From an uncultured Thermoleophilia bacterium (GTDB lineage: Bacteria > Actinomycetota > Thermoleophilia > UBA2241), in NCBI GenBank assembly GCA_963715985.1, contig CAVQSP010000014.1, positions 512,001 through 576,000 on the forward strand: 64,000 bases of DNA, read 5' to 3'. Below are positions 20,694 to 47,502 of the stretch, one piece after another (the stretch's first letter is position 1; each line of letters starts with the position of its first letter). The position numbers were made by a program, and so were the translations under genes. A model generated the notes under the pieces. That model saw nothing but the letters and a program-made list of their open reading frames with translations. It searched no databases and was not told the DNA's origin.

Positions 20694-20695
20694 GG

Positions 20696-27780: not shown

Positions 27781-27801
27781 GGGCGCTATCAAGGTGCGCC
27801 G

Positions 27802-27858
27802 CTGAGGCGGCGGGCGTGGCGGGAGTGCACGACGTCCCCGCCGCGCCCGCCGCCTCGG
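27802..27858. terminator. GC hairpin between convergent genes
   Basis: GAGGCGGCGGGCGTGGCGGG ... CCCGCCGCGCCCGCCGCCTC. Confidence 0.45.
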
Positions 27859-27862
27859 TGGT

Positions 27863-28594
27863 TCAGGTGGCGCTCGCGCCCAGCCCCGAAGCCTCGAGGG
27901 CGCGGGTCATCAGCTGCCGGACCCTGCACACGTGCGACACGGCGGCAGCGGCGGCGCGCCCGGGGTCCTGCTCGCGGATCGCGGCCACGATCTGCTCGTG
28001 CGTGGCGAAGACGTCGTCCTCGGAGCTGTCGAGGAGCTCTTCGTCCACGGGCAGGAAGAGGTCGGCGCGCACCGCGTTCATGGCCAGCGCCAGACGCGAG
28101 CTGTGGGCGGCGCGGGCGATGCTGCGGTGGATGCCGGCATCCGCCTGGAAGAGCGAGGCGCGGCGGCGGTTGTCGCGCTCCTCGGCGAGGGCGCGCTCGA
28201 TGTCGTCGAGCTCTGCCTCCGTGCGGCGCTCCGCGGCCAGCTCGGCGAGCCGGCTCTCGATGGTGATGCGGAACTCGAAGATGTCGTCGAGCTCGCGGCG
28301 GTGCAGGGCCATCCACTGGTCCCAGCACTTCTGCAGAGCCTGCACGTCGCTCACACGCGAGCCGCCGTGGGCGCCGCGCGTGGTCACGAGGTAGCCGGTG
28401 CTCTCCAGCGACTTGAGCGCAAGGCGGAGGGTGACGCGTGAGATCCCCAGGCGCGCGGCCAGTTCGGTGGCAGGGGGGAGGCGGTCGCCCGGGCCCAGCT
28501 CGCCCCAGAAGATGAGGGCGCGCACGTAGCGCTCGGCGCTCTCGCTGGCCGTGCCGGGGGTGAGAGACATGTCGTCGAAGCTCTGTTCGCTCAT
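27863..28594 (-). CDS. GntR/FadR family regulator (FCD domain)
   Basis: 'LGPGDRLPPATELAARLGISRVTLRLAL...RGAHGGS', 'EFRITIE', 'ADAGIHRSIA', 'HEQIVAAI'. Confidence 0.9.
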   Translation of the reverse strand: MSEQSFDDMSLTPGTASESAERYVRALIFWGELGPGDRLPPATELAARLGISRVTLRLALKSLESTGYLVTTRGAHGGSRVSDVQALQKCWDQWMALHRRELDDIFEFRITIESRLAELAAERRTEAELDDIERALAEERDNRRRASLFQADAGIHRSIARAAHSSRLALAMNAVRADLFLPVDEELLDSSEDDVFATHEQIVAAIREQDPGRAAAAAVSHVCRVRQLMTRALEASGLGASAT

Positions 28595-28634
28595 GCCACC
28601 GAGTCCGTTCGTGTACGGCGTGATTGTAGCAGGC

Positions 28635-28670
28635 TTGACATGAATATCTAAATGGCTACCATCTATACAA
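28635..28670 (+). promoter_or_regulatory. Promoter TTGACA-N16-TACCAT with FadR-like near-palindrome AAATGGCTACCATCT
   Basis: AT-rich divergent intergenic region between gntR and the ACD-ior operon. Confidence 0.55.
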
Positions 28671-28716
28671 TTCAACGGGATCCCGGCAGCCCGCCGGGGT
28701 GATGAGAGGAGCCGCG

Positions 28717-30905
28717 ATGCCCGCCGACGTCCACGATGCGCGCGAGGTCGCGGCAGGCATCGTCGAGGGGGCGCTCAGGGCGGGTCGGCCGGCCCTCGAT
28801 GAGGCGGCCGCCAAGCAGGTCCTGGCCGCCTACGGCATACCCGTTCCGGCCGGCGGTGTCGTGCATTCGGCGCCGGAGGCGGTCGACCTGGCCGCAGCGC
28901 TGGGCGGGCCGGTGGCTCTGAAGGCCGCCGGCGCCCTCATCCAGCACAAGACGGAGGCCGGCCTGGTCCTGCTCGACCTGCGCACGCCCGACGAAGTCGG
29001 CGCCGGCTACGCGATCCTCGCGGAGCGCGGCGGCGACGCTCTGGAGGGCGTGCTCGTGGAGCAGATGGTGGCCGGCAGCCGCGAGTTCCTGATCGGCATG
29101 AAGCGCGACGCCGCCTTCGGTCCCGTAGTGACGTTCGGCCTGGGCGGGACCATGACCGAGGTGTTCCGCGACATCGTTCTGGCGATCCCCCCTGTCGCTG
29201 ACGACGATGTCGCGGAGCTCCTCGGCCTCATCAAGTCCAGGGCGCTGCTCGGCAACTTTCGCGGGCAGCCGGCCGTGGACCGCGACAAGCTCGTCGCGAT
29301 CTTCCAGGCCGTCGCGCGCCTCGCCGCCGAGCAGCCGCGCATCGCGGAGATCGACGTGAACCCGCTGCTCATCGCCGGCGACTCGCCGGTGGCCGCGGAC
29401 GCGCTGATCGTGCTCGGGGCGGAGGCGCGCGCAGGTGCCGGCGCACAGGGCGTTCACCCCCGACCTGGAGGCCGTGCTGGCGCCCCGGTCTGTCGCCATC
29501 GTCGGCGCCTCCGACGACGTCGTGAAGTGGGGAGGGTCGGCGCTCAAGAACATCATGGCCGGCGGGTTCGAGGGAGCCATCTACCCGATCCACCCCAAGG
29601 GCGGCGAGTTCTTCGGCTTGCCCGTGTATCCGAGTCTCGCCGACACGCCCGAGCCGCCGGACATGGCGCTGCTCGCCGTCGGCGCCGCTCGCGTCCCCGA
29701 CATGGTCGCGGAGTGCGGCGCCAGGGGCGTGCGGTCCGCCGTCGCCATCGCCGCCGGCTTCGCCGAGACGGGGGAGGCCGGGGAGGAGGCCGAGCGGACG
29801 CTGGCCCAGACGGCCGACGAGGCCGGCGTGACGCTCATCGGCCCCAACTGCATGGGCATCATCGCCAACGCCACCAGCTTGCACGCGACCGGCTTCATCG
29901 CCCTGCACCCCCGCCCCGGCAAGCTCGCCATCGTCTCCCAGTCCGGCAACCTCGGCGTCCAGCTGACGGAGCTCGCCGACCGTAGGGACGTGGGCGTACG
30001 CTGCTTCATCGGCGTCGGCAACGAGGCGCAGGTGAGCGCCGTGGACGTGGTCGACTACCTGTCGCGCGACGACGGCACGGCCTCCGTACTCATGTATCTC
30101 GAGGGCATCGACGACGGCCGTCAGCTGCTCGACGTGGCGCGAGCGACCGGCCGGAAGAAGCCGGTCGTCGTGCTGCGGGGCGGCCTCACGGAGCACGGGG
30201 GCAAGGCCGCCGCGTCGCACACCGGCGCCATGGCCGGTTCCGCGGCCGTCTTCGAGGCCGCGGCGCGCCAGGCCGGCCTCGTCACCTGCACCTCGGTACA
30301 GGAAGCGCTCGACCTGACGATCTGTCTTGCGCACCTCCCGCTGCCCAGAGGCCGCCGCATGGCCATCGTCACCAACGGTGGCGGCGCCGGCGTCCTCGCC
30401 GCCGATGAGATGTCTCGCCACGAGCTCATGCTCGTCGACCCCCCGCAGGAACTGCTGGACGAGCTCGACACCATCCTGCCGCCGTTCTGGAGCCGCCGGA
30501 ACCCGATCGACATGGTGGCCATGGCCGGCGGCGACGTCGCCCATCGCGTGCTCTCGGCGGTCGCCAAGAGCCCGGCTGTGGACGGCATCGTCGTCCTCTC
30601 GGTCCTCGGCGTGCCCAACACGGGTGACGAGGTGCGCTCCCAGAGCCTCACCGGCGACTACGACGACTTCAGCCCCTGGGAGAAGACGCTACCTCGACCT
30701 CGTCGCCGACCTCATGCGCGAGACCGGCAAGCCCATCATCAACGTCCCCGACCTGCCCCTGCGCCGGGCGCTTCACGCCGGCGACCACCTGTACACTCCC
30801 GTCGTGGTGTCCACGCCGCGCAACGCCGCGCTCGTTCTCGCGCGTATGGCGAGCTATGGCGCCTGGCGCCACGACACGAATCCGCGACCGAAGGATCCCG
30901 CATGA
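28717..30905 (+). CDS. ADP-forming acyl-CoA synthetase (ACD), ATP-grasp domain N-terminal to CoA-binding domain; frameshifts near 29433 and 30688
   Basis: 'HKTEAGLV', 'FGPVVTFGLGG', 'EIDVNPL', then 'PRSVAIVGAS', 'IGPNCMG', 'SQSGN', phospho-His 'AASHTGAMAG', 'NPID'. Confidence 0.87.
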
Positions 30906-32758
30906 GCACGACCGACGTAGCGGGGGCGAGCCGGGAGACAGCCGCCCCGCAGCTGGAGATCATGTCCGGCAACGAGGCCATCGCCCGCGGCGCCTGGGAG
31001 GCGGGCGTACGCTTCGCCTCGGCCTATCCCGGCACGCCGAGCACCGAGATCATGGAGAACCTCGCCGGCTACGACGGCGTGTACGCCGAGTGGGCGCCCA
31101 ACGAGAAGGTCGCCGTCGAGGCCGCCACCGGCGCGTCCATGGCGGGCGCCCGCGCCCTGGCGTGCATGAAGCACGTGGGCCTCAACGTCGCCGCCGACCC
31201 GTTCTTCTCGTCCTCGCACGTGGGCGTGACCGGCGGGCTTGTGATCGTCTCCGCCGACGACCCCGCCATGCACAGCTCGCAGGACGAGCAGGACAACCGC
31301 AACTACGCCAAGTTCGCGAAGATGCCCATGATCGAGGCGTCCGACGCCGACGAGATGCTCCAGTTCATCAAAGCGGCGTACGAGCTCAGCGAGTCGTTCG
31401 ACACGCCGGTGCTGTTCCGTACCACCACACGCACGTCGCACGCCCAAGGCGTGGCGCGGCTGGGCGAGCGGGTCCCCGAGGCCGAGCCACTCCTCACCCT
31501 CGACCGCGACCCCGCCAAGCACATCATGATGCCGCACAACGCGACCAAGCGGCACGTCTTCATCGAACAGCGCCTTCTGGACCTGGCCGAGTGGGCGGAG
31601 ACCACCGACCTGAACCGCGTGGAGATGGGCGACACCCGCGTCGGCATCGTCACCTCCGGCGCCGCCTACGGCTCCGCCAGGGAGGCGTTCCCGCGGGCCA
31701 GCTTCCTCAAGCTCGGCTTCACGTACCCGCTGCCTCGCCGCCTCATCGCCGACTTCCGCGCCAAGGTCGACAAGCTGTACGTGGTGGAGGAGCTCGATCC
31801 GTTCCTCGAGGAGCTCATCCGCCTGCAGGGCGTGCAGGTCGACGGCGGCAAGGACCTGCTGCCGCTGTGCGGCGAGTTCAACCCCGGCCTCGTGGCTCGC
31901 GCCCTCTCCGAGGCCGGCGTGCCCGGCGTGGACGAAGCGCTGCTGGTGGTGCCGGCCCCGGCGGCCGACGACCTGCCCGACCGGCCGCCGACCCTGTGCC
32001 CGGGCTGCGCGCACCGCGGCGTGTTCGTGGCCCTGCGCCGCCTGCGCACCTTCGTCAGCGGCGACATCGGCTGCTACAGCCTCGCCGCGCTGCCGCCGTT
32101 CGAGGCCATGCACTGCAGCACCTGTATGGGCGCCGGCATCAGCATGGCGCACGGCATGGCCAAGGTGCTCGACGAGGAGGCCGACCACCGCAACCGCCCG
32201 GTGGCCATCATCGGCGACAGCACCTTCTTCCACTCCGGCATCACGTCACTCCTCGACATCGCCTACAACCGCAGCGACGTGCTCACCATCATCCTGGACA
32301 ACCGCACCACCGCCATGACCGGCGGCCAGGAGAACCCGGGGATGGGGAAGACCCTGTCGGGCGCGCAGGCGCCGGACGTGGACATCCCCGCCCTCGTCCG
32401 CGCCCTCGGCATCTCGCGAGTGAGGGAGATCGATCCGCTCAACGTGGCCGAGACGCAGGCGGTGCTCAAAGAGGAGATCGCAGCGCGCGAGCCGTCGGTG
32501 GTCATCGCCACCTCGCCGTGCGTGCTGGAGTACCGCATCAAGCGCGAGGCCTACCGCGTCGACCCCGACCTCTGCACCGGCTGCAAGGTCTGCCTCAAGG
32601 CGGGGTGCACGGCGCTGAGCCTGTACCTGAACGACGAGGGTGAACGGCGCGTCGAGATCGACCCCACCGCCTGCAGCGGCTGCAGCGTCTGCTCGCAGCT
32701 CTGCAAGTTCGAGGCCATCATCGGTCCTGAGACCGCCGGCGGAGAGGATGCACGATGA
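30902..32758 (+). CDS. iorA: Indolepyruvate/arylpyruvate:ferredoxin oxidoreductase alpha subunit
   Basis: 'SGNEAIARG', 'YPGTPSTE', 'MKHVGLNVAAD', 'LCPGCAHR', 'GDSTFFHSG', C-terminal 2x[4Fe-4S]. Confidence 0.93.
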   Translation: MSTTDVAGASRETAAPQLEIMSGNEAIARGAWEAGVRFASAYPGTPSTEIMENLAGYDGVYAEWAPNEKVAVEAATGASMAGARALACMKHVGLNVAADPFFSSSHVGVTGGLVIVSADDPAMHSSQDEQDNRNYAKFAKMPMIEASDADEMLQFIKAAYELSESFDTPVLFRTTTRTSHAQGVARLGERVPEAEPLLTLDRDPAKHIMMPHNATKRHVFIEQRLLDLAEWAETTDLNRVEMGDTRVGIVTSGAAYGSAREAFPRASFLKLGFTYPLPRRLIADFRAKVDKLYVVEELDPFLEELIRLQGVQVDGGKDLLPLCGEFNPGLVARALSEAGVPGVDEALLVVPAPAADDLPDRPPTLCPGCAHRGVFVALRRLRTFVSGDIGCYSLAALPPFEAMHCSTCMGAGISMAHGMAKVLDEEADHRNRPVAIIGDSTFFHSGITSLLDIAYNRSDVLTIILDNRTTAMTGGQENPGMGKTLSGAQAPDVDIPALVRALGISRVREIDPLNVAETQAVLKEEIAAREPSVVIATSPCVLEYRIKREAYRVDPDLCTGCKVCLKAGCTALSLYLNDEGERRVEIDPTACSGCSVCSQLCKFEAIIGPETAGGEDAR

Positions 32759-33381
32759 GCGCACGTCCGACCTTCAACATCCTCATCTCCGGCGTCGGCG
32801 GCCAGGGCGTGGTGCTGGCCAGCTACGTGCTCAGCCGCTGCGCCCTGGCCGAGGGCTACGACGTCAAGCAGAGCGAGGTCCACGGCATGGCCCAGCGCGG
32901 CGGCTGTGTGACCAGCCACCTGCGCTTCGGCGACAAGGTCTACTCGTCGCTCATCACGCCCGGCACGGTGGACGTGCTGCTCTCCTTCGAGTCCGTGGAG
33001 GCGCTCCGCTACGTGCACTGGCTGAAGCCCGGCGGCCTGCTGGTCTACAACATGACGCGCGTGAACCCGAGCACCGTCTCGTCCGGGGCCGAGGAATACC
33101 CGGAGGGCCTGGCCGAGCGCATCGCGGAGGCCTGGCCCAACGTGCGCGCCCTGGACGCCAGCGCGCTGGCCGCCGAGGCCGGCACCGTCAAGGCGGCCAA
33201 CGTCGTGATGCTGGGAGCCATGGCGAGCGCGCTGCCCTTCGCGCCCGAGACGCTCGAGGACATCATCCGCCGCTCGGTGCCTCCGAAGACGGTCGACGTG
33301 AACCTCAAGGCGTTCCAGCTCGGCCGCGCCGTGCAGTCGGGCACGAGCGACGAGGCCGTGCCGGCCGCCGCCGGCGCATGA
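32755..33381 (+). CDS. iorB: Indolepyruvate/arylpyruvate:ferredoxin oxidoreductase beta subunit
   Basis: 'GVGGQGVVLAS', 'SEVHGMAQRGG', 'ANVVMLGA'. Confidence 0.93.
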   Translation: MSARPTFNILISGVGGQGVVLASYVLSRCALAEGYDVKQSEVHGMAQRGGCVTSHLRFGDKVYSSLITPGTVDVLLSFESVEALRYVHWLKPGGLLVYNMTRVNPSTVSSGAEEYPEGLAERIAEAWPNVRALDASALAAEAGTVKAANVVMLGAMASALPFAPETLEDIIRRSVPPKTVDVNLKAFQLGRAVQSGTSDEAVPAAAGA

Positions 33382-33475
33382 CGGCGAAGTCCGGCGGGCG
33401 GCCGCAGGTGCAGCCGCATCACGATAGCACCGGCCACCGCGTGGGCCGCAGACTGAGCGAAAGGACACCGCCGCC

Positions 33476-34100
33476 ATGAAGAGCACCACCTGGCAGGACG
33501 ACCACCCCTGGACCCACATCGACTGGGAGTTGAACGACGTCACCCCGTACCAGCTCAACTGGTTCTGGTGCAACATGGAGAAGGGCGACTACCTCTGGCA
33601 CCCCAACCAGCACAAGGGCTTCGAGTGGTGGATCAGCCTGGAGGAGGCCGGCGGCCCTCTCGGCAGCGTCCACATCGCGCCGCAGACGTGGAACGACGGC
33701 GTCAAGATCCGCCCGTACATCAAGTTCCCGCAGGCTTGAGGACGTCCCCGCCGAGATCAGGGACCTCATCAAGTACGACCACGTCGTCATCGCCGGCGCG
33801 ATCAGCATCCTCGGCGACAACGTGAAGCCCGACGATCCTGTGCTCGGCTACCGCGTGCACCAGTGGCAGAAGAGCGACAACGGCTGCGTCGGCATGTCCT
33901 CGGCCGTAGAGGCCAAGGAGAACGCGGCCGACGACGGGCTCATCTGGGCCGCTCACGCCAACGAGGAGGTCGGCAACTGGGAGGTCTTCCTGCCGACGCT
34001 CGTGCGCCTCTACCGAGTGATCACGGATCCCGAGATCGCCCCGTACTACTCCTTCCGGGTGGAGGGCGTGGGTCGCGAGGCGCGGTACGCAGAGCTCTGA
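33476..34100 (+). CDS. Short divergent PhlG/phloretin hydrolase-like (SRPBCC fold) protein; frameshift near 33730
   Basis: 'VTPYQLNWFW...LWHPNQH', 'YRVHQW', 'AHANEEVGNWEVFLP' parallel the PhlG motifs; joins ORFs 33476-33739 and 33822-34100. Confidence 0.62.
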
Positions 34101-34234
34101 GAGACAAAGCGCCTGCAGCCAGCAGGAGGCGGCGACCGACAACGGAAGCTGCGGCGCCGTCGGCAAGCAGGAGGCGATGGGTGTGACCTGCAACGTGTCC
34201 CGATCCTGTAGAGGCCGGTGACTGGGGGTATGCG

Positions 34235-35104
34235 ATGCTGAAGTTCATGCTGGCCAGCCGGAGCAAGCCGGAGCACACGAAGGAGCGTTACTACTTCGAG
34301 TGGGGCATCATCCACGTCGCCCTGATGGTGACCACCCCCACGGTGGTGTCGACCTTTCGCCGGTACGCCCAGCACTTCGTCCCGGATGGGCTCGACGGAG
34401 ACAGACTGCTCTTCCCGTTCTCTGAGATGGGCTGGGAGAACATGGCCGACCACTGGCTCGAGACCTGGGACGACCTCGTCCTCCCGTTCAAGTCCGACGA
34501 CTATCCCAACCGCATGCAGCCGCACAACTTCGGCGACAGCACCTTCGACCTGCAGCTGATGACCGGGGAGGAGCTGTACGCGGACGACGGGTACTACGCC
34601 GGCGGCGTGAAGCTGGTGCACTTCCTGCACCGGCGGCCGGACATCAGCCTGGAGGACTTCAAGGCGAAGTACCGCGCGCACGCCGAGCTGCTGCTGGCGG
34701 AGGGCGTGGGCCGGGGGCTGGTGCGCAAGTGCGTGCAGAACACCGAGACGCAGGGCGACCCCAAGTACTTCAAGGGGACGCTGTTCGAGCTCGGTGGGGT
34801 GAACACGTACTCCGGGGTCGAAGAACTGTGGTTCGACGACGTGGGCGCCGTCTATGAGTTCTGCGGCGACCCTGAACGGCGGGCTGCCCTGCTGGAGAGC
34901 TACGCCGGCTTCGCCGACGAGCAGACCTACTCCATGGTGACGACCGAGCGCGTGGTGTTCGACTGGGTCACTCCGGGCCACATCAGTCCGCAGCCGGCGG
35001 TGCTGCAGGAGGGCACCCTGGAGGCCGCGATCGACGGGCAAGGCTACAGAGGCTGGAGCGTACCCGGGTGGGAGAAGCGGACACGCCAGAACCGCTCGAC
35101 GTGA
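34235..35104 (+). CDS. Two-domain EthD (dimeric alpha+beta barrel) protein
   Basis: Repeated pattern 'KFM..SR.KP..TKERY...W...H...RYAQH' and 'KLVHFLHRRPDISLEDF..Y..H...KCVQN...GVEELWFD'. Confidence 0.75.
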   Translation: MLKFMLASRSKPEHTKERYYFEWGIIHVALMVTTPTVVSTFRRYAQHFVPDGLDGDRLLFPFSEMGWENMADHWLETWDDLVLPFKSDDYPNRMQPHNFGDSTFDLQLMTGEELYADDGYYAGGVKLVHFLHRRPDISLEDFKAKYRAHAELLLAEGVGRGLVRKCVQNTETQGDPKYFKGTLFELGGVNTYSGVEELWFDDVGAVYEFCGDPERRAALLESYAGFADEQTYSMVTTERVVFDWVTPGHISPQPAVLQEGTLEAAIDGQGYRGWSVPGWEKRTRQNRST

Positions 35105-36247
35105 CGCAGGCGGGTCCTGCCGGGAGTCCGCCGCCCGCCGGTGCCGGTGACGCGCGTCCCGCGGGCCAGTCCGAGCTCAGCGGGGGTCGCGCAGACGCTT
35201 TCGCCGCGGTGCTCATGGCGTTCGTGGCCCTGCAGACCGTGGGCATCGCGCTCATCCCGGTGGTCACGCCGTTCCTGAAGGACCACTACCAGCTGAGTGA
35301 CGCGCAGATCGGTCTGCTCACCTCTGCGTTCGCTCTTGCGGTCGCGCTCACGTCGATCCCCATGGGCCTGGCCACGGCACGGTGGGGCGGCCGGACGCTG
35401 CTCATCGCGGCCGCCCTCTTCCTGGCCGGGAGCCTCGTGTTCGCCGCCGCCGACTCCTAATCTGGTTTCTGGTGGGTCGCTTCATCCAGGGCATGGGCGC
35501 CGGGACAGGCCTCGGCACGGTCGGCACGCTGCTCATCATGCCGAGCATCGCCGCAGCCGGCGGGTACCACGCCGTGTTCATCGCGGCGGCGGTCTTCGGC
35601 GTCGCGCTCGCGGCGGCGGCGGTCTCACTCAGGGCCCTGCGGTCGCGGCCGGCGTGGAGCGACGCCCAGACCGTCGGCGCACTGATGCGCGCGCTCGGCA
35701 GGGCGGCCCTCAACCCGGGCGTCCTCGTGATGGCCGTGATGAACCTGACCGTCGTGGCCGTGGTGGTCGGCGTGCTCACGTGGACGCCGCAGTTCCTGCA
35801 CGACATGCACGGCGCATCGCTGGCTGTGGCGGCGTATCTCACCGCCACCATCGGTCTCTCGCAGACGGTGGGCAACCCGGCCGGTGCTGGAGCCATGACA
35901 CGCTGGGGCAAGAACGCAGTGCTCGTCGTCGGCTTGGGGCTGCTGGCCGTCTCGACGGCGCTCGTCCCCCTGGGTCCGGGGATCGTCGCGACCTTCATCG
36001 CGGTCATCGTGACCACGTTCCTTGCGGGAGCGATGCTGCCGCCCAGCCTCGCCATCGTCGCCGACGTGGCTCACGGCAACGAGGCGGTGGGCGCTGTCAC
36101 CGGTCTCATCGGCCTGTTCAACGTGGTCGGCTCGATGATCGCGCCTTGGATGTTCGGCGTGCTGCTGGACACGTACGGCACGGCGCCTGCTACCTCACGG
36201 CTCTGGTGAGTCCAGCCGTTCGGAGACCTCCGCGGCGGTCTTCTTGA
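35101..36247 (+). pseudogene. MFS transporter, disrupted (stop/frameshift near 35458 and 36180, apparent internal deletion)
   Basis: 'LSDAQIGLLTS', 'RWGGR', 'GRFIQGMGAG', 'LTWTPQFL'; TM4-TM5 segment appears to be missing. Confidence 0.6.
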
Positions 36248-36440
36248 CCGCTGCCGCGTGCCGGCGCATCTCGGCTTCGCTGGACCGCTCGACGGGACGA
36301 CGACATCCCCGAGCACGGATCGACCTGCGATCTCGCCACATCGCCACGGAGTGCAGGCAGGAGCCGCTACGCCTGATCCCGGAAGCGCGCACTTGGGGCG
36401 GCAGGCTCAATGACGCGGGCGCCACCCTTACTGCATGAGA

Positions 36441-36474
36441 AGGGGCCCGCTGCCCTTGCGGGCAGCGGGCCCCT
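36441..36474 (-). terminator. 15-bp hairpin with GCAA loop on the minus strand
   Basis: AGGGGCCCGCTGCCC-TTGC-GGGCAGCGGGCCCCT, downstream of the small membrane protein gene. Confidence 0.55.
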
Positions 36475-36505
36475 CTCGCGCCAGGGCAAGCCGTGGCGCG
36501 GTCTC

Positions 36506-39929: not shown

Positions 39930-40010
39930 CCGTGCCTGGCGCCGCCTCGTCCTCGCGCACTATCGCGGTGATGGCGTCCTTGAACGGGGCCAGTTGGGAG
40001 CCCCCGGCGC
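39930..40010 (-). mobile_element. Possible IS21 (IstA) transposase remnant
   Basis: 'SQLAPFKDAITAIVREDEAAPGTV' resembles the IstA 'SKLDPFK..I..LL..D...PATV' segment; no other IS parts seen. Confidence 0.25.
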
Positions 40011-40114
40011 TGCCTGCGCGGCGGCTGGGCAAGTCCGGCAGACTCCCGCCGCCCGCTCTTTCTGACGCAGGGTGGCGCAAGCCTTCCCGCGGCGCCGGCG
40101 CGCGTGCGAGGCCG

Positions 40115-41048
40115 TCAGGGTGCCGCGTCTGGCGGAACCGGCGGGCCTTCGCTCCACGAGCCGGTCGATGAGGCGCGGTAGTCGTCCAGCCGCCCGGTGA
40201 CATCGCCCTGACACCGGTACGCCGCCTCCACGGCGAGGAAGAGGAAGACGTGCGTCAGCATGATGTCGCGCTGGTCGTACTGGTCGTCCCAGGCCGCGCG
40301 CATGGCGACCTGCTCGATGGCGCCGTAGAGGCTGTAGGCCATGAGCTCGTCGGAGACCGGGGGAGAGGCTGGCCTGGGCCGCAGCGCGGCGAGGTCGGCG
40401 GCGGGCCCGGCGGCGATGAGGCGCAAGCGCCTCCTGCACGGCGGCGCGGGTCTCCGCGTCTTCCTGAAGGGCCTCCGCGCGCGCCAGGCCGAGCAGGTCG
40501 GGGCTCAGGCGCTGCAGGCCCCAGAACGCGTAGGTCCGCATGATGAGCCGCACGACGGGGTCGGGCTCCTGCGCCAGCGGCGGCTCGATGAGGCCGCTCA
40601 TCCAGCGCACGAACACGTTGAACGACTCGATGAACAGCTGCCGCTTGGTGGCGAATTGCGTGTAGAACAGCGGAGGCGTGACGCCGGCCTCCGTGATGAT
40701 GTCGGCGAGGCGGGTGCGTTTGTACCCCTTGCGCGCGAACTGGCGCGCCGCCGCCTGCAGGATCGCGGCGCGCGTCTCCGCGGCGCGCCGCGCCACGAGG
40801 TCGGGCTCGGCCGCGGTCTGGCGCTCGAGGAGCGGGCGGATGCTCGTCTTGATGGCCTCGAGGTCGGCGCCGGCGTGCTTGAGCCGGCGGATCTCCCCGA
40901 GCAGCTCGACGTGCACATCGCTGTAGAGGGCGCGGCTGGCGGCGGCCTTCTGGGCGGCCGGCAGCAGGCCCTCGCGCACGTAGAAGTAGATCGTGCTGCG
41001 CGGCGTGCTCGTGGCCGCTTCGAGCTCCGTGATCGTGAGCGCCTTCAC
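40115..41048 (-). CDS. MerR-HTH / TetR hybrid regulator; frameshifts near 40425 and 40170
   Basis: 'ITELEAATSTPRSTIYFYVREGLLP...YSDVH' followed by 'TRAAILQAAARQFARKGYKRTRLADIITEAGVTPPLFYTQFATK'. Confidence 0.8.
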
Positions 41049-41222
41049 CGCGATCTCCCTCCGGCGGCGGCTTCTGCGTGACCCGGGTCACGGCGACATT
41101 GACAGGACGGACCGCGTAACTCTAGCATACGAACCAGTGATGTATAGTCCTATAGCAGAGGTCGCTGCTCTGGTGGATGGACCGTCTGCGTGGATGCTCG
41201 AGCGGGGAGGTCCGGGTCTGCC

Positions 41223-41477
41223 ATGAACACCGTGACGATCGACTTCGAGGCGTGCACCGGCTGCAAGACGTGCTACCTGGCCTGCTTCGCCGACGTCATC
41301 CGCTGGGACGCCGAGGCCAAGCGGCCCATCGTCGCGTACCCGGAGGACTGCGTGCGCTGCAACGTCTGCGAGATCAACTGCAAGGATGAGGCGATCAACG
41401 TGGTCGCCGACTGGGACATGGACTTCCCGCCGGTCATCGAGCGCGGCTTCCCGTACACGGTAGGAGGCAAGCGATGA
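41223..41477 (+). CDS. AprB-like 2x[4Fe-4S] ferredoxin
   Basis: CTGCKTCYLACF...YPEDCVRCNVCEINC. Confidence 0.88.
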   Translation: MNTVTIDFEACTGCKTCYLACFADVIRWDAEAKRPIVAYPEDCVRCNVCEINCKDEAINVVADWDMDFPPVIERGFPYTVGGKR

Positions 41478-43188
41478 CCGTCCTCGAGGATCTGGGCCGG
41501 GTCGAGTCCGCCGACGTGCTCGTCATCGGCGGGGGCATCGGCGGGCTCGTTGCCGCGGTGGCCGCCAAGGAGAAGGACCCGGACGCCGACGTGCTGGTCG
41601 TCGAGAAGGCGAGCTCCGGCTGGGCCGGCCAGGCCAACAAGGGCGCCGGCGTGTGGTGGTACCTGGCGCCCGAGGACGATGTGGACCGCTTCGTGCAGTT
41701 CCACGTCGAGCACATCGGCCACTACATCGAGGACCAGGAACTGCTCGCCGACTTCGGCCGCCAGAGCCTGGCCACTCTGGAGCGCATGGACGGATGGACC
41801 GGCAAGTTCCAGCGCCGTGACGACGGGCAGTTCATCCACAAGCGCTTCAAGCCGTTCCTGCCCTGGAGCCTCACGGGCGCGGACCTCGACTTCATGCGCC
41901 CGCTCAAGCGCACCGCCCGCAAGCTGGGAGTGCGCTTCATCGACAAGACGTCGCTCACCGACCTGCTGACCGACGGCGGGCGCGTCGCCGGCGCCGTCGG
42001 GTTCAGTCTGCTGGACGGCAGCCCTCTCGTGGTGCAGGCCCCCGCCGCCGTCATCGCCACCGGCGGCCAGAGTTACCGCATCATGGGCATGTGGAGCTGC
42101 CAGCGCGGCGACGGGCTGGGCATGGCCTGGCGCGCCGGCGCGCAGATGCGCAACGCCGAGTGGGGGCCGTTCGCCCAGCTCGCCGGCAAGAAGGGCAAGG
42201 AGCCGCTCATCGGCTCCGAGGACGCGCTGTACAACGCCTGGCACGAGAAGCTCTCGCCGCGGTTCCGCGACGAGCTCGCGCCCGACGTCTGCGGCATGAC
42301 GAGCGCCGTGTGGTACCAGCAGATGGTGGCCGGCAACGGCCCGCTGGTGACGTTCCACCCAGAGAACTGGATGCTCGCCAACACCACGGAGGACCTGGAG
42401 GGCGGCACCGTGTGGGACCGCCCGGTGGCCATCAAGTTCTGGGAGACGCTCATCAGCCGGGTGCGCAGCGCCGACCCGCCGGGCGCCTTTCTCGAGGTGT
42501 TCCCGGCGGTCCTCGGCGAGCTCTCGCCGATCAAGGTGGATCACGGCATGGCGACGACGGTGCCCGGCCTGTTCGCCTGCGGCAACGCCTGCTACAACGG
42601 CTCCGGCTTGCCCGGCGCCGTGCCGGCCTCGCCCGGGCGCATGCGCGGGTCCGGCCTCTTCGGCGCCACCTGGATGGGCATCCGCGCCGGCGAGTCGGCG
42701 GTGGGCGCCGCCGGCGGCGCACAGGCCGACGCGATGCAGGCGGAAGCGCTCGTACGCGACGCGCTCGCGCCCCTCGAGCGCACGGACGGCGTGCCGGCGA
42801 TGGAGCTGGTGCGCGCCGTCCAAGACGGCCGTGAACCCGGTCGGCTACTCGATCTACAAGAGCGAGGAGCGCATGACCGAGGCGCTCCAGATGGTCCTTG
42901 ACGTCAAGGAGCGCCTCCCCCAAGTCGCGGCCACCGATCCGCACTACCTGGTGGCCGCCCACGACGCCCGCAACATGGCGCTGAGCGCCGAGCTCTTCTA
43001 CCGCACGGCGCTGGAACGCAAGGAGTCGCGCGGCTGGTTCATCCGCGAGGACTACCCCGAGCGCGACGACGCCGAGTGGCTCAAGTGGGTCAACGCCGAG
43101 CCCGACGGCGACGGGATGCGCATCTGGACCGAGGACGTCCCCGTCGCCGACTACCCGTTCCAGCCCGACCGCCCCCGAGAGGAGCTGA
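41474..43188 (+). CDS. AprA/SdhA-superfamily flavoprotein of unknown substrate; frameshifts near 42826 and probably 43175
   Basis: 'DVLVIGGGIGG', 'IATGG', 'GDGLGMAWRAGA', 'TTVPGLFACG', 'RKESRGWFIREDYPERDD'; no covalent-FAD His. Confidence 0.82.
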
Positions 43189-43193
43189 GCCGA

Positions 43194-44058
43194 ATGGCCG
43201 CCACGATGGAACGCCAGCCTCGCCCTCTGACCCCCGAGGAACAGGCGAAGCCCTACGCCAAGTTCTACACGATGGAGTTCCCGGGGCCGGACCCGGCGAC
43301 GGTGGCGCTCATGGCGCGTGACCGCCAGGTCCCGCAGGAGCAGATGCTCATGCCGGAGGACCTCAACAAGCTGCTCGACCCCGGCAACCTTCGAGACCGA
43401 GGTCGGCTGGGGCATGATGGACAACGGCGCCGGCTACATCGCCATGCGCCACGAGATGCCCGGCGTCACCGTCGAGATGGTCGACTGGTGGTTCGCGTGG
43501 CACCCGATCGAAGGCCTGCGCTACCGCATCTGGTACCCGCCGTACCACCTCGGCGTCCACGTCGACGAGTGGGCGCAGCCGCGGCTGCTCGACCCCGGCG
43601 TGCCCGTCCGCGACAAGTGCGAGAAGGTCGTCCACCACGTGACCGAGGACACCGGCGTGGGCACGGAGCACATCGACATCCACTTCCTCACGCCCGAGCA
43701 GATCGGCTTCGACATGAGCCGCTGGCACAAGCCGAACGTGGGCACCTTCGTCGGCGGCTTCGGGTGGAGCGTCAACGAACACCAGCCGCCGGAGATCCCG
43801 GCCGCCCCGGCCATCATGGTCCACTTCATCCGCGAGATGGAGGGCGGCGTCGAGTGGCGCACGCGCTTCTGGATGGGCTACACGATCCTGAACGGCCACC
43901 CGGTCCCCCTGCTGCCGCCGGGCATCCGCGTGCCCGAGGACGCCGTGTGCGGCCTCGCCAACCACAACATCTACGAGTACACACGGCTCAAGTCGCTGCT
44001 CCCGCTGGTCTACGCGGAGCTCGGCGGCACCGTACGTGTGACCGTACGCAGACGATGA
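43194..44058 (+). CDS. Phloretin hydrolase / DAPG hydrolase (PhlG) family, copy 1; frameshift near 43388
   Basis: 'MPGVTVEMVDWWFAWH', 'LRYRIWYPPYH', 'VTED', 'TRFWMGY', 'HNIYEYTRL..LLP'. Confidence 0.87.
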
Positions 44059-44088
44059 CCGTCGCAGCCAGAGGGGAGAGGTGACCGC

Positions 44089-44871
44089 ATGCTCAAGAGC
44101 ATCGTGATGATGGACCTGCCCATCGACGACATCGCGCCGATGGAACGCTGGTACTACGAGTCGCACTCGTCGGAGATCTCGCGCCGGTACGGCCCGTGGC
44201 TGCAGCGCCACGAGAGCTACGTGGCGCTCGACGCGCCCGAGGACGCGCGCCGGTTCGGCTTCTACAACTGGCGCGTCACCGAGACCTACTGGCGCGAGAT
44301 GCCGGAGTCCGGGGCCAAAGGCGCGTACTGCTTCACGCCGGCCCCGGTCTGGAACCCCGTCGCCACCTGCACCGTCCCAGCGCAGCCGGACAACGACTTC
44401 TTCGGCTGGGACGGGTTCTCCACGGACGGCGCCAGCATCCGCTGGTACATCCTGTTCCGGTATCCCCTCGGGGTACGCCTCAAGGACGGCGAGGACTGGT
44501 TCGTCAACGTGCACGCCCCGGAGGTGTGCAGGCAGCCGGGGCTCAAGCGCTTCTTCAGCTACAAGGTCGAGCAGGCGGCGATCCCGCTGCCCGGCATGTG
44601 GCACCCGGACGCCACGCCGCCGCAGGACATGATGATGGTGCAGTGGGACCGCGTGGTGGAGCTCTGGTACCCGAGCTTCAGTGCCTGGCGCAAGGCGGTC
44701 ATCGAGGAGCCACCGGCCTACACGGCACCGGAATGGGCGACCGACGACTTCTACAAGGACGGCCATGCCACGTACCCGTTCTTCAAGCCGGGCGTGGACT
44801 TCGTGAGCACGTTCCTGCTCGAGCGCCCCGCCGACGAGTTCCTGCGCGACACGCGCTACTACCGGCCATGA
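44089..44871 (+). CDS. Bacterial-type chalcone isomerase homolog
   Basis: 'ERWYYESH', 'RFGFYNWRVTETYW', 'DGASIRW...YPLGV...GEDWF', 'WDRVVELWY...W', 'PEWA...YPFFKP' are collinear with Eubacterium ramulus CHI as recalled from memory. Confidence 0.75.
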   Translation: MLKSIVMMDLPIDDIAPMERWYYESHSSEISRRYGPWLQRHESYVALDAPEDARRFGFYNWRVTETYWREMPESGAKGAYCFTPAPVWNPVATCTVPAQPDNDFFGWDGFSTDGASIRWYILFRYPLGVRLKDGEDWFVNVHAPEVCRQPGLKRFFSYKVEQAAIPLPGMWHPDATPPQDMMMVQWDRVVELWYPSFSAWRKAVIEEPPAYTAPEWATDDFYKDGHATYPFFKPGVDFVSTFLLERPADEFLRDTRYYRP

Positions 44872-44932
44872 GCGCGCCGTTCGTGAGCCGCTCGCGTCCC
44901 GTTCCAGCCATCGCCACCCGGAGGTCACGCTG

Positions 44933-45772
44933 ATGGCCGTCAGGACACTCACGCCCGAAGAAGAGGCCAAGCCGTACGCCAAGTACTACCACCGCCCGGT
45001 CACGCCGCCGGACGCGGACATGATCGCGCTGATCCAGCCCGACGTGCAGATCGACCCGGCCCTGGCGCTGCCGCCGGAGCGCATCAGCGACCTGCTCGAC
45101 CCCGGCTACCACGAGGTCGAGACCGGCTGGTGCATCATGCCCAACGGCAGCGGCTACCTGGCCGTGCACAACCGCATGCCCGGCGTGACCGTCGAGATGC
45201 TCGACTGGTGGTTCTGGTGGCACTCCATGGCCAGCGTGCGCTACGGCCTCTGGTACCCGCCGGGCCACTACGGCATCTCGATCAGCAAGAAGTCGCGCGC
45301 CAAGCTCAGTGACCCGAGCGTGCCGGCCAAGGAGAAGATCTACGGCCGCACCGACCACGTGGTCGAGGACATCGGCACGGGCGCGGAGGACATCTACATC
45401 TGCTTCTGCGCCCCCGAGGAGATGGGCTTCGACATGAGCCGATTCCACGCGCCGAACGTCGCGGCCGTGTACGGCGGCTACGGCTTCGACCAGCCGCAGG
45501 GCGCCAAGCCGAGCGACATCCGGGCGCCCGCCATCATGTGTCACTTCATCCGTGAGCTTCCGGACGGGGACGGCATCGAGTTCCGCTCGCGCTTCTGGAT
45601 GGGCTACAAGCTCATCGAGGGGCAGCCCGTGCTCGCCATCCCGCCCGGTGAGTCGGTGCCGGCCGATGTGCCCTACGGCCTCGCCGATCACAACGTCAGC
45701 GAGTACTGCAACCTCAAGTCGCTGCTGCCGGAGATCTGGGCCGAGTTCAAGGACGCCGACCCGGCGCTGTGA
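44933..45772 (+). CDS. Phloretin hydrolase / PhlG family, copy 2
   Basis: 'MPGVTVEMLDWWFWWH', 'WYPPGH', 'VVEDIG', 'SRFWMGY', 'HNVSEY'. Confidence 0.88.
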   Translation: MAVRTLTPEEEAKPYAKYYHRPVTPPDADMIALIQPDVQIDPALALPPERISDLLDPGYHEVETGWCIMPNGSGYLAVHNRMPGVTVEMLDWWFWWHSMASVRYGLWYPPGHYGISISKKSRAKLSDPSVPAKEKIYGRTDHVVEDIGTGAEDIYICFCAPEEMGFDMSRFHAPNVAAVYGGYGFDQPQGAKPSDIRAPAIMCHFIRELPDGDGIEFRSRFWMGYKLIEGQPVLAIPPGESVPADVPYGLADHNVSEYCNLKSLLPEIWAEFKDADPAL

Positions 45773-45794
45773 AGCCGGGCAGGGAGGAACCCCT

Positions 45795-46589
45795 ATGCCA
45801 ATGAAGCTGATGGCGGCGTCACGCCGCCGGCCCGGGCTGACCAGGGCCGAGTACTTCCGCTACATCGAGCACTACCACGGCACCGTGGCGCGCCTCGAGC
45901 GCTTCAAGATCGAGAAGTACATCCAGAACCACGTGATCGACGGCGCGTTCGGCGTGATCTCCGACGCGGGCGGCCACAAGAACAAGGTCGCCGACAGGGA
46001 CGCCGTCGTCGAGCTCCACTTCGACAGCTTCCGCGACATGCTGGCCACCCTCGAGCCCGAGGGCGTGACCGTGTCGCGCGCCAACCAGGACGGCCGTTTC
46101 TTCGCCGACGAGCCGACCAACATCATCGTGATGGCGGAAGAGACCGAGCTGCCCGTCGCCAAGCCCATGCCGGACTTCAACCCCGGGCTCGGCGAGCCGG
46201 GCAGGGGTGCGCTCAAGGTGATGCAGTACATCATGCGCCGGCCCGAGGTCTTCCCCCAGGACTTCCACCGGCTGTGGCGCCGCGCCCACGACGAGGCTCT
46301 GGCGGCGAGCCCCTACGCCAACGACATGTTCCGCAAGATCGTCGTGAGCAAGCGCTCGCGCGTGAACGACAACGACGCCGCGGCCCGCGCGCACTTCAAG
46401 ATGGTCGACCCGCCGGTGTACGACCTCGTGGTGTCGTTCGTCCTCGACAGCATCGAGCAGGCCGGCGCCTTCCGGCAGTACTTCGACGCCATCACCAGCA
46501 GCCCGCTGGTGTTCGCCGACTGGTCGGAGTCGTTCTTCCTCTACGTGAGGCCGGTGCGGATCATCGACGACGCGCCGCCGAAGGAGTAG
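45795..46589 (+). CDS. Two-domain EthD protein
   Basis: 'RRRPGLTRAEYFRYIEHYHG...KYIQNH...DAVVELHFDS' plus a second degenerate domain; GGGAGG RBS. Confidence 0.78.
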   Translation: MPMKLMAASRRRPGLTRAEYFRYIEHYHGTVARLERFKIEKYIQNHVIDGAFGVISDAGGHKNKVADRDAVVELHFDSFRDMLATLEPEGVTVSRANQDGRFFADEPTNIIVMAEETELPVAKPMPDFNPGLGEPGRGALKVMQYIMRRPEVFPQDFHRLWRRAHDEALAASPYANDMFRKIVVSKRSRVNDNDAAARAHFKMVDPPVYDLVVSFVLDSIEQAGAFRQYFDAITSSPLVFADWSESFFLYVRPVRIIDDAPPKE

Positions 46590-46593
46590 TGCC

Positions 46594-47502
46594 ATGCCGG
46601 ACATGACCAAGCCTGAATGGGCGGCCCAGAAGACCTACGACGAGAACCGGGCGTTCAGCAAGACCAAGGCCACCCGTCCGCCGCTCACGCCCGAGGAAGA
46701 GAAGCGCCCGTTCGCCAAGTACTACTACGACGAGATCCCGCAGCCGGATCCCGTGCACTACGCGATCATGGACGAGCCGATGGACCCGGCCGACGCGTTC
46801 TACCCGGAGGACATCAGCCGCCTCCTCGACGTGCCGGCGCTCGAGGCGGGGGTGGAGATCGGATGGTGCAACCTGCCCAATGGGGCCGGCTACATCGCCA
46901 ACCGGATCCACTACCCGGAGTTCACCGCCGACATGGTCGACTGGTGGTTCGCGTGGCACCCGCTCGAGGACCTGCGGTACCGCATCTGGTACCCGCCGCA
47001 GCACGCCGGCATCATGCTGAGCCCCATCGACCGTGCTCGCATCCTCGATGACTCCATCCCCAACCGTGAGAAGAACTGGGGCGTCGTCCACAACGTGACT
47101 GAGAACTGCGACAACGGCTACGAGAACATCGACATCGCCTTCCGCTCGCCGGCCGACGCGGGCTTCGACATGGAGAAGTTCGACAAGGTGGCGGCGACCA
47201 TGGCGGGTGGCATGGGCTGGGCCGTGACGGTCGACAAGACCGACGAGTCCATCACCGCGCCGGCGCTCATGGTCCACATGTTCTACGACGCTCCGGAGGG
47301 AGGGCTGATCCACCGCACGCGCTTCTGGATGGGCTACCGCTTCAACGAGGAGGACAAGCCCGAGCTGTGCCTGCCGCCTGGCGTGAGCGTGCCGGTCGAG
47401 GCCGTCCAGGGCCTGGCGCGGCACAACGTCAAGGAGTACACGCGGTGGCGCGAGTTCCTGCCGAGGATCTACGCGGAGCTGGGCCCGGGGATGTACTGCT
47501 AG
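46594..47502 (+). CDS. Phloretin hydrolase / PhlG family, copy 3
   Basis: 'MVDWWFAWHPLEDLRYRIWYPPQH', 'VTEN', 'TRFWMGY', 'HNVKEY'. Confidence 0.88.
   Translation: MPDMTKPEWAAQKTYDENRAFSKTKATRPPLTPEEEKRPFAKYYYDEIPQPDPVHYAIMDEPMDPADAFYPEDISRLLDVPALEAGVEIGWCNLPNGAGYIANRIHYPEFTADMVDWWFAWHPLEDLRYRIWYPPQHAGIMLSPIDRARILDDSIPNREKNWGVVHNVTENCDNGYENIDIAFRSPADAGFDMEKFDKVAATMAGGMGWAVTVDKTDESITAPALMVHMFYDAPEGGLIHRTRFWMGYRFNEEDKPELCLPPGVSVPVEAVQGLARHNVKEYTRWREFLPRIYAELGPGMYC

Follow-up and report, generated by a model that had tools for sequence, protein, structure and literature searches.

Organization of the locus

The DNA analyzed here, referred to as the window, is a stretch of 64,000 nucleotides from an uncultured Thermoleophilia bacterium (assembly GCA_963715985.1, contig CAVQSP010000014.1, positions 512,001 to 576,000), and the subject is a cluster of genes within it that encodes the ADP-forming enzyme ACD, an indolepyruvate oxidoreductase (IorAB), a short PhlG-like protein that is named sPhlG here, an EthD-family protein (EthD2), and a transporter of the major facilitator superfamily (MFS). 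The G+C content of the window is ~65-72%, and a scan of public genomes placed its nearest relatives among uncultured Thermoleophilia metagenome-assembled genomes (MAGs). The layout of the 27.8-36.2 kb region was drawn from codon-position G+C, a listing of open reading frames (ORFs), and Pfam and NCBIfam scans. The six genes run in one direction on the + strand and face a GntR/FadR-type regulator, which has an N-terminal GntR helix-turn-helix and a C-terminal FCD domain (Table 1); the mechanically called ORF of the regulator reaches a TTG codon at 28675. The ATG codon of IorA overlaps the ACD stop, and that of IorB overlaps the IorA stop. Every gene named in the preliminary description of this DNA was recovered by the Pfam, NCBIfam, and ORF analyses. 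The end that it gave for the MFS gene (36247) belongs to an ORF in the wrong frame and had to be moved to the stop of the MFS frame.

The gap between the regulator and ACD is ~120 bp long and AT-rich. Matches to a sigma-70-like consensus within 27700-36600 were confined to this gap (three found, 0.4 expected) and consist of TTGACA-16-TACCAT at 28635-28662 on the + strand and two further matches on the - strand. No inverted repeat of at least 8 nt was found in the gap, and a search for Rfam families and tRNAs across the window found none. The Pfam scan detected no aminotransferase domain in 27863-36247, in agreement with the earlier statement that the operon lacks an aromatic amino acid aminotransferase; the closest aminotransferase in the window belongs to class III and lies at 1232-2653.

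Table 1. Genes and other features of the window, with the sPhlG cluster first
Feature	Coordinates	Strand	Basis and remarks
GntR/FadR-type regulator	27878..28594	-	Pfam FCD 3.6e-19, GntR 4.6e-13; orthologue alignments span 28594 to 27878
AT-rich, divergent promoter-like region in the GntR-ACD gap	28623..28662	both	sigma-70-like consensus matches only
ACD, fused beta-alpha, two frameshifts	28717..30905	+	ATP-grasp_5, CoA_binding_2, Succ_CoA_lig, Ligase_CoA_2
IorA, intact	30902..32758	+	TIGR03336 IOR_alpha; TPP_enzyme_C, POR_N, and Fer4 domains
IorB, intact	32755..33381	+	NF005322; POR 9.3e-44
sPhlG, 207 codons, 1-nt insertion near 33731-33735	33476..34100	+	three-frame reading; intact homologues
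EthD2, 289 aa, intact	34235..35104	+	PF07110
MFS transporter, frameshift ~35460	35101..36209	+	MFS_1 in both pieces; L001 orthologue aligns to 35101-35457 (frame 1) and 35463-36197 (frame 3)
Pyrogallol-hydroxytransferase-like molybdoenzyme	24224-26947	+	PF21423 AhtL-like_1st 2.9e-15, Molybdopterin, Molydop_binding, Fer4_11
Fe-S/CarboxypepD_reg beta subunit	26952-27780	+	frameshift ~27360
Flavonoid island	39960..47499	+	Pfam; MerR-TetR regulator on - strand, frameshifted
Ferredoxin, flavonoid island	41148-41477		
FAD_binding_2 flavoprotein, flavonoid island	41459-43166		frameshifted
Three canonical DAPG/phloretin hydrolases, flavonoid island	at 43231, 44807, 46549		
Bacterial chalcone isomerase, flavonoid island	44059-44868		PDB 4d06 at 4.9e-11
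Second EthD protein (EthD_B), flavonoid island	45438-46586		

Frame breaks and assembly quality

Frame breaks were located by aligning intact orthologues from four related loci (L001, L007, L009, and L013) to the window. The ACD gene is spread over three frames, with breaks at ~29415-29444 and ~30685. The sPhlG gene changes frame at 33733/33735, where a base absent from L001, L013, and L002 is inserted. The MFS protein, in addition to its frame switch, has a C-terminus ~30 aa shorter than that of the L001 orthologue. The preliminary description had noted that the hydrolase-like gene requires repair, which is borne out by the one-nucleotide insertion, and had missed the two breaks in ACD and the one in the MFS gene.

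A decaying array of pseudogenes, inactive in this genome whatever the family does elsewhere, could be read from the five frame breaks within ~9 kb (Fe-S beta subunit, ACD twice, sPhlG, and MFS), the truncated MFS C-terminus, and the further broken genes of the window. Such decay is very improbable, however, as every break amounts to an indel of one base, the flanks of each break align with equally high identity (97% and 92% around that of sPhlG), and in-frame stops do not pile up. Moreover, in two sister MAGs from that series (L020 and L021) sPhlG also contains single-base indels, which differ from the one in the window and lie a few bases away from it; this is the pattern expected of long-read assembly errors. 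For these reasons, the frame breaks look like errors of long-read assembly and not gene decay.

Split or fragmented genes are also present at 12977-18102, 26952-27780, 40175-41057, 41459-43166, 49001-52202, and 60039-61776. These comprise pieces of a molybdoenzyme, the Fe-S subunit, the MerR-TetR regulator, both flavoproteins, and a FAD_binding_4/CCG oxidase, and they fit an indel-prone long-read assembly.

The sPhlG protein

The window copy of sPhlG was read through with one four-base step (P0001, 207 aa). Intact homologues are 206-211 aa long, the best being 94% identical over the full length. The homologue search returned 179 matches at E<=1e-3 among 223 candidates, and a profile search of 1.84 billion representatives returned 229 proteins at E<=1e-3, of which 128 reached E<=1e-10 and 36 reached E<=1e-30; many are fragments.

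The relationship of sPhlG to the DAPG hydrolases (PF18089), which include PhlG and the phloretin hydrolase Phy, became visible at the level of profiles. BLASTP comparison with the three DAPG hydrolases encoded elsewhere in the window gave weak local alignments (E 0.8, 0.18, and 0.009), and the intact homologue P0002 had no PF18089 match at E<=0.01. Sixty of 112 sPhlG relatives reached PF18089 at that threshold (best 1.5e-7), and hhalign of the sPhlG family against the three window hydrolases gave a probability of 94% (E 1.4e-7, 158 columns). The sPhlG profile also matched proteins of 245-290 aa, starting at about residue 55, with E values of 1e-19 to 1e-13; of three that were scanned, P0251 (260 aa) hit PF18089 exactly at the gathering score (22.7 bits), and P0255 and P0272 had no Pfam match. 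In a language-model atlas, the neighbours of sPhlG were clusters of DAPG_hydrolase.

The AlphaFold2 model of P0002, built from 112 sequences, had a pLDDT of 94.5 and a pTM of 0.91. PhlG (3hwp) ranked first in the Foldseek search with this model (E 1.9e-6), and phloretin hydrolase of M. abscessus (5xe5/5xey) occupied ranks 3 and 5-7 (E ~1e-5, TMq 0.58-0.60). The preliminary description had let its proposal stand or fall with an SRPBCC/PhlG fold in structure prediction; the predicted catalytic domain is Bet v1-like, with PhlG and Phy as its nearest structures, and the proposal withstands this attempt at refutation.

Residues W41, H42, P43, H46, H66, Q70, H128, H160, and E164 are among the positions that are invariant across the 112 sPhlG sequences. 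The segment LWHPNQH aligns with LWHPWCH of the M. abscessus phloretin hydrolase, H160-x3-E164 aligns with the HxxxE motif of that enzyme, and both segments also align with the window paralogues; H46, H160, and E164 correspond to the invariant H123, H264, and E268 of the paralogues, and H42, H66, and H128 are additional invariant residues of sPhlG. The metal site of PhlG is taken here to be His/Glu/His/Glu, and the aligned sPhlG positions are presumed to belong to the equivalent zinc site. Given the shared WHPxxH and HxxxE motifs, the profile-level homology, and the modelled fold, sPhlG is treated as a distinct short subfamily of the PhlG/phloretin-hydrolase lineage, represented by PhlG (PDB 3HWP) and by Phy of Eubacterium ramulus and M. 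abscessus (5XE5/5XEY). PhlG and Phy are ~275-300 aa long. PhlG and Phy cleave acylphloroglucinols at the bond that attaches the acyl carbonyl to the ring, and flavonoid and phloroglucinol genes likewise keep company with sPhlG. The linkage of sPhlG to enzymes of 2-oxo acids would imply a 2-oxo-acid product, in contrast to acetate or arylpropionate.

Two natural fusions were encountered. P0235 (749 aa) joins a FAD_binding_2/Succ_DH_flav_C flavoprotein of the fumarate-reductase type to an sPhlG-like domain, and the same flavoprotein family also follows sPhlG in Thermoleophilia loci. P0305 (378 aa) joins a SnoaL_4 domain (NTF2-like cyclase/isomerase) to a DAPG_hydrolase domain.

IorAB and ACD

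Both subunits of IorAB scored at the equivalog level of their hidden Markov models (HMMs), IorA with 668.3 bits against a cutoff of 650.9 (TIGR03336) and IorB with 252.6 bits against 237 (NF005322), and the thiamine pyrophosphate (TPP) and 4Fe-4S domains are present. In related loci (L001, L007, L009, and L013), ACD is encoded as one polypeptide of 731-772 aa in which the beta and alpha parts are fused, and the 745-aa ORF of L009 contains all four ACD domains. The same four domains are present in the window, where an open frame takes two frame changes (ATP-grasp_5 8.3e-63, CoA_binding_2 3.8e-24, Succ_CoA_lig 4e-46, and Ligase_CoA_2), with a TIGR02717 score of 423.8 bits, which is under the cutoff of 567.

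Ior and ACD are the pair used in archaeal peptide fermentation. The window cluster resembles archaeal and clostridial arylpyruvate fermentation, which employs IOR with ACD or Ptb-Buk, in its equivalog-level IorA and IorB and full set of ACD domains, and Ptb-Buk fills the place of ACD beside sPhlG and Ior in other phyla. It differs in that the beta and alpha parts of ACD are in one polypeptide, that an aminotransferase is lacking, and that a flavonoid cleaved by C-C hydrolysis, not an amino acid, is the proposed source of the 2-oxo acid.

Neighbourhoods of sPhlG in other genomes

A scan of species-representative genomes yielded 282 stretches, 259 of which encode sPhlG relatives; the best 80 of the 259 were kept and represent 79 distinct loci. 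From these, 727 ORFs within ~6 kb of sPhlG were called and clustered, the clusters were named by Pfam, NCBIfam, and PDB comparisons, and tblastn searches with the window proteins were added. Neighbours were counted within ~7 kb of sPhlG.

IorA/IorB genes accompany sPhlG in 20 of the 79 loci, and a TPP enzyme closest to 2-oxoacid decarboxylases (PRK08266, 730 bits) does so in 5 further loci. ACD, Ptb, or Buk genes are present in 20 loci, genes for proteins like chalcone isomerase (CHI) in 15, EthD2 in 26, an FMN_red protein resembling flavone reductase (FLR) in 10, and genes for cyclase, BKACE, or proteins like 3-hydroxyacyl-CoA dehydrogenase in 15. CHI-like and/or EthD2 genes are found in 37 loci, and at least one linked module in 49.

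Linkage to IorA/B was found in 14 of the 15 Thermoleophilia-clade loci, in which the gene order is also conserved, and in 6 of the 64 others; all six of the latter also have Ptb and/or Buk, or ACD. The arrangements vary among phyla: Buk-Ptb-x-IorA-IorB-CHI-sPhlG-FLR in an Oscillospiraceae MAG (L061), whose FMN_red protein matches the FLR structure 7d38 at 1e-59; Ptb-Buk-IorA-IorB-sPhlG-EthD2 in L067; Ptb-Buk-sPhlG-IorA-IorB in Tissierella pigra (L075, sPhlG at 9974-10597); and sPhlG-IorA-IorB-Ptb-Buk-MFS with a LysR gene in Aminicella lysinilytica (L042, sPhlG at 9998-10636). These two are cultured organisms, as is Clostridium puniceum, which carries sPhlG in L059. The arrangement seen in the window goes beyond chance: 14 of the 15 loci of the Thermoleophilia clade preserve the order, and other phyla again link sPhlG to Ior in operons with another layout. 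On a maximum-likelihood tree of 67 sPhlG rows, which omits the 12 loci lacking sPhlG as a single called ORF (L011, L020, L021, L024, and L042 among them), the Ior-linked label requires six changes (bootstrap 5-95%: 6-6), and the linkage is thus not one inherited block.

The proteobacterial loci L039, L046, and L057 have the order SDR-3HCDH-BKACE-LysR-TPP enzyme-EthD2-sPhlG. One example of the BKACE neighbours scores over the cutoff of the model for 3,5-dioxohexanoate:acetyl-CoA acetone transferase, and the BKACE, cyclase, and dehydrogenase neighbours match the published phloroglucinol pathway. In 15-21 loci sPhlG is flanked by SDR, cyclase, 3HCDH-like, and BKACE genes, a resemblance to the anaerobic phloroglucinol cluster of Clostridium scatologenes (PGR, DPGC, TfD, and TAL); the accessible text of the paper on the C. 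scatologenes pathway reports DAPG_hydrolase genes beside anaerobic phloroglucinol-pathway genes and does not single out the short family. CHI-like genes lie between iorB and sPhlG in L001, L002, and L013, and the CHI-like set retains a histidine aligned with the catalytic His33 of E. ramulus CHI, the role of His33 being taken from the title of entry 8b7u. The survey of ior operons for PhlG-like neighbours suggested in the preliminary description therefore found them in several phyla, alongside CHI, FLR-like, and phloroglucinol-pathway genes.

These neighbourhoods bear on whether Ior and ACD serve ordinary fermentation of aromatic amino acids or arylpyruvate, with sPhlG, EthD2, and MFS as unrelated downstream passengers. 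The familiar archaeal pairing of the two enzymes, the equivalog-level scores of IorA and IorB, and the class-III aminotransferase and branched-chain amino-acid ABC transporter genes elsewhere in the window would be in keeping with that function. We nevertheless consider it quite unlikely, since the cluster has no aminotransferase of its own and the sPhlG-Ior linkage occurs, in varied gene orders, at six separate places of the tree (in Bacillota, Acidobacteriota, Pseudomonadota, and Actinomycetota), where it comes with CHI, FLR-like, and phloroglucinol genes. The CHI gene between iorB and sPhlG in three loci is likewise hard to reconcile with passenger genes.

In several loci of Bacillota and Acidobacteriota (L022, L023, L026, L031, L045, and L047), sPhlG occurs with genes of the corrinoid O-demethylase type (URO-D-like methyltransferases, DUF1638, and the RACo activator), and an alpha-L-rhamnosidase gene lies near sPhlG in L079. 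This company hints at methoxylated or glycosylated flavonoid substrates.

The EthD2 protein

EthD2 scored 41 bits against the PF07110 gathering score of 22 (residues 134-229), and the nearest atlas clusters are 93-99% EthD. Its AlphaFold2 model (18 sequences, pLDDT 82.3) has two successive beta-alpha-beta barrels, so that the earlier designation as an EthD protein was right as to the domain and incomplete as to the tandem architecture. It is 82% identical to the L024 orthologue, which is also placed after sPhlG. A sequence comparison with the PDB gave nothing meaningful. Foldseek placed an anthrone-oxidase-like protein (5f9p, E 4.9e-8) at the top, and E. ramulus CHI entries (4c9s, 4d4f, 3zph, and 8b7u) at E values of 7e-7 to 1.3e-5 with TM 0.43-0.49, ahead of coproheme decarboxylase and chlorite-dismutase-type proteins; for 5f9p, 4c9s, 4d4f, and 3zph together, the TM was ~0.46-0.50.

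EthD2 shares with E. ramulus CHI (PDB 3ZPH, 4C9S, and 4D06) a similar size and predicted tandem ferredoxin-like barrels; it differs in lacking sequence-level membership and in its top structural match. Assignment as a chalcone isomerase was considered and rejected, because no Chalcone_N match was obtained and hhalign with the CHI-like set reached only 13.5% (E 0.0021), the likeness being confined to the fold. EthD2 thus appears, from its model, to have a CHI-like architecture and not to be a CHI, and a role as isomerase or tautomerase is a lead only. CHI-like and EthD2 genes occur together in some loci (L002, L013, L036, and L051), and the two proteins need not be interchangeable.

A proposed route from flavonols to arylacetate

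From gene content, profiles, and models, the cluster is judged, with about even confidence, to be an operon of a flavonoid (flavonol/flavanonol) branch and not of amino-acid fermentation, in which sPhlG would cleave an auronol or alpha-diketone to phloroglucinol and arylpyruvate, and Ior and ACD would then form arylacetate and ATP. A flavanonol such as taxifolin would be ring-contracted to an auronol (alphitonin or maesopsin) by a bacterial CHI, and the tandem EthD protein may assist this contraction as an isomerase or tautomerase. An auronol in its ring-opened state is a 1-(2,4,6-trihydroxyphenyl)-3-aryl-propane-1,2-dione, an alpha-diketone, in which sPhlG, acting as a metal-dependent C-C hydrolase of Bet v1 fold, would cut the C-C bond that joins the acyl carbonyl to the phloroglucinol ring. 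The elemental balance of this cleavage holds (C15H12O7 + H2O = C6H6O3 + C9H8O5). IorAB would decarboxylate the arylpyruvate oxidatively to arylacetyl-CoA with reduction of ferredoxin, a TPP decarboxylase taking its place in aerobes and denitrifiers, and the fused ACD (Ptb-Buk elsewhere) would convert arylacetyl-CoA to arylacetate and ATP. The MFS protein may move substrate or product, and the GntR/FCD protein may govern the divergent promoter. The route from the flavonol B-ring to arylacetate, as first put forward for this DNA, is thus supported in part, by the fold and the gene linkage, while the auronol or alpha-diketone substrate, the arylpyruvate product, and the part played by EthD2 are still conjectural.

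The overall conversion, quercetin + 2 H2O = phloroglucinol + 3,4-dihydroxyphenylacetate + CO2, is redox-neutral, and ferredoxin reduced by Ior could therefore pay for the initial reduction of the flavonol. According to the accessible text of a 2026 review and of abstracts, CHI converts taxifolin to alphitonin, and FLR is described in sources of which part is accessible as reducing flavonols; with these activities and the linkage of Ior, ACD, and Ptb-Buk, each enzyme of a route from quercetin to arylacetate adjoins sPhlG in at least one of the genomes.

The cleavage of alphitonin itself has been left to conjecture in the texts available. The accessible part of a 2024 paper terms 3,4-dihydroxyphenylpyruvate from alphitonin cleavage a "hypothetical intermediate", that of a 2024 preprint still treats alphitonin breakdown as hypothesised, and that of the 2026 review assigns the formation of alphitonin to an enzyme and leaves its cleavage unassigned. 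A 2021 study of MAGs from polyphenol-fed soil reports, in its accessible text, that indolepyruvate oxidoreductase was co-expressed with CHI, FCR, and PHY and suggests formation of phenylacetate, with no source enzyme named for phenylpyruvate. No assignment of an enzyme that cleaves alphitonin was found in the searchable literature, a scope that lies outside subscription journals and bioRxiv supplements, and no text was found there that joins alphitonin with indolepyruvate, or dihydroxyphenylpyruvate with quercetin and phloroglucinol. Within these sources, the statement of the preliminary description that the enzymes of the path from taxifolin via alphitonin to arylacetate are unassigned continues to hold for the cleavage of alphitonin.

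An alternative source of arylpyruvate would be an aryl-lactate route, in which sPhlG cleaves an alpha-hydroxy-dihydrochalcone, formed from taxifolin by an Fcr-type reductase, to phloroglucinol and aryl-lactate, and a separate lactate dehydrogenase supplies arylpyruvate to Ior and ACD. Sources accessible in part describe a path of Fcr and Phy to 3,4-dihydroxyphenyllactate and the formation of this product by Catenibacillus scindens. Genes of the OYE/Pyr_redox_2 enoate-reductase type, which we take to be of the Fcr type, lie near sPhlG in 5 loci, and FAD_binding_4 and CCG genes resembling lactate/glycolate oxidase are present at 49001-52202 and beside the OYE gene of L001. This route is nonetheless unlikely for sPhlG: three long hydrolases of the canonical DAPG/phloretin type are already available in the window for that task, the compact sPhlG-IorAB operons of L042, L061, L067, and L075 contain no dehydrogenase, and the alphitonin-forming CHI is the commoner direct neighbour, with 15 loci against 5.

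Several observations weigh against the proposed cleavage of an auronol or alpha-diketone by sPhlG. In the window, sPhlG, ACD, and MFS are all frameshifted, and genes for FLR-like protein, PGR, cyclase, BKACE, and 3HCDH were sought and not found, so that the window differs in this respect from the C. scatologenes cluster. The read-through protein P0001 had no Pfam match at E<=10 (PF18089 included), no NCBIfam match, and no meaningful PDB sequence match, and a search of PDB sequences with the sPhlG family HMM found no chain. The family has no N-terminal extension before the Bet v1 domain and lacks the N-terminal 55-90 residues of PhlG/Phy, the alignments beginning at residue 55-90 of the longer proteins; the invariant Q70 sits where the paralogues have the invariant E156, the third canonical ligand. 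No linked module was found near sPhlG in 30 of the 79 loci, including most of a 14-row clade of Lachnospiraceae, Eubacterium, and other Bacillota, in which sPhlG mostly lies beside a LysR regulator and O-demethylase-type genes. The matches listed for a homologue search seeded with the copy from an uncultured Eubacterium include none from E. ramulus, Flavonifractor, or Catenibacillus; the organisms named as converters of alphitonin in the accessible literature are E. ramulus, F. plautii, and Catenibacillus decagia, the last of which makes the arylacetate. Finally, adjacency to CHI would fit a flavanone/chalcone route equally well, and the TPP enzyme could itself cleave the diketone.

The apparent replacement of one metal ligand, the missing N-terminal domain, and the loci free of modules could instead mean that sPhlG acts on another acylphloroglucinol resembling phloretin or DAPG, or is a non-catalytic binder or escort of the Bet v1 type, with a product that does not feed Ior. 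Many Bet v1/SRPBCC proteins only bind ligands, and generic members of this group come after PhlG and Phy in the Foldseek list for sPhlG. Against such a role, which is judged improbable, stand the His/Glu set, which matches the PhlG/Phy motifs and is invariant in 112 sequences, and the repeated adjacency of 2-oxo-acid enzymes (Ior in 20 loci, the TPP enzyme in 5), which is unexpected for cleavage of the phloretin type, as this yields arylpropionate.

For the family as a whole, the auronol-cleavage reading leads to a broader proposal, offered tentatively as a real possibility that falls somewhat short of probable. Members of sPhlG would be the missing C-C hydrolase of auronols (alphitonin/maesopsin), and, acting with CHI or EthD2, with IorAB, and with ACD (or Ptb-Buk), would make flavonol breakdown a redox-neutral, ATP-yielding fermentation with one substrate-level ATP per quercetin. 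The ferredoxin reduced by Ior would be re-oxidised by a flavonol-reducing flavoprotein, in soil Thermoleophilia, Acidobacteriota, Proteobacteria, and Clostridia alike.

Other features of the window

The molybdoenzyme and its Fe-S subunit lie directly upstream of the GntR-ACD-Ior genes, and a second set of Mo, Fe-S, and NrfD genes is located at 18050-23077 on the - strand. The same AthL-like pair adjoins EthD2-sPhlG in the proteobacterial loci L039 and L057, with AthL 65-66% identical, which suggests that the molybdoenzyme pair and sPhlG share a role in trihydroxybenzene chemistry.

The flavonoid island lies ~6 kb downstream. The second of its DAPG hydrolases matches phloretin hydrolase 5xey at 2.8e-38 and PhlG 3hwp at 5.6e-28. 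The pair formed by EthD_B and the third hydrolase recurs in L067 and L077 with 62-64% identity, and EthD-type proteins repeatedly pair with PhlG-type hydrolases. Between the MFS gene and the island, ORFs at 37328-37975 (+) and 38706-39731 (-) have coding-like codon-position G+C and no Pfam match at E<=0.01.

A ferredoxin gene precedes each of the two FAD_binding_2 flavoprotein copies in the window. The second ferredoxin and flavoprotein (59836-61776, frameshift near 60578) are 80-86% identical to those of L004 and are followed by a branched-chain-type permease gene that is 95% identical to its L004 counterpart (block 59836-62735). This ferredoxin-flavoprotein-permease block stands directly after sPhlG in L003-L009; in the window ~26 kb separate the two, and the EthD gene has taken the place beside sPhlG.

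The FAD_binding_4 and CCG genes at 49001-52202 and at 15047-17074 of L001, which resemble those of glycolate oxidase and D-lactate dehydrogenase, lie near flavonoid genes and could encode an aryl-lactate dehydrogenase, the enzyme that would connect the aryl-lactate route of Fcr and Phy with Ior.

Significance

Bacteria that break down quercetin form arylacetates, 3,4-dihydroxyphenylacetate among them, as major products. The enzyme families considered here were already known; the novelty, as far as sequences and models indicate, lies in a short subfamily that is predicted to act on an alpha-dicarbonyl compound and whose coupling to Ior and to ATP formation is conserved. With a candidate family and a conserved operon partner, the step from alphitonin to arylacetate becomes directly testable, and the family may serve as a gene marker for the capacity to convert flavonols to arylacetates in gut and soil metagenomes. 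If the proposal is true, the PhlG/Phy hydrolase lineage would extend to alpha-dicarbonyl substrates, and the B-ring/C-ring half of flavonols would be a source of ATP for anaerobes, a point that would bear on the turnover of polyphenols in anoxic soils.

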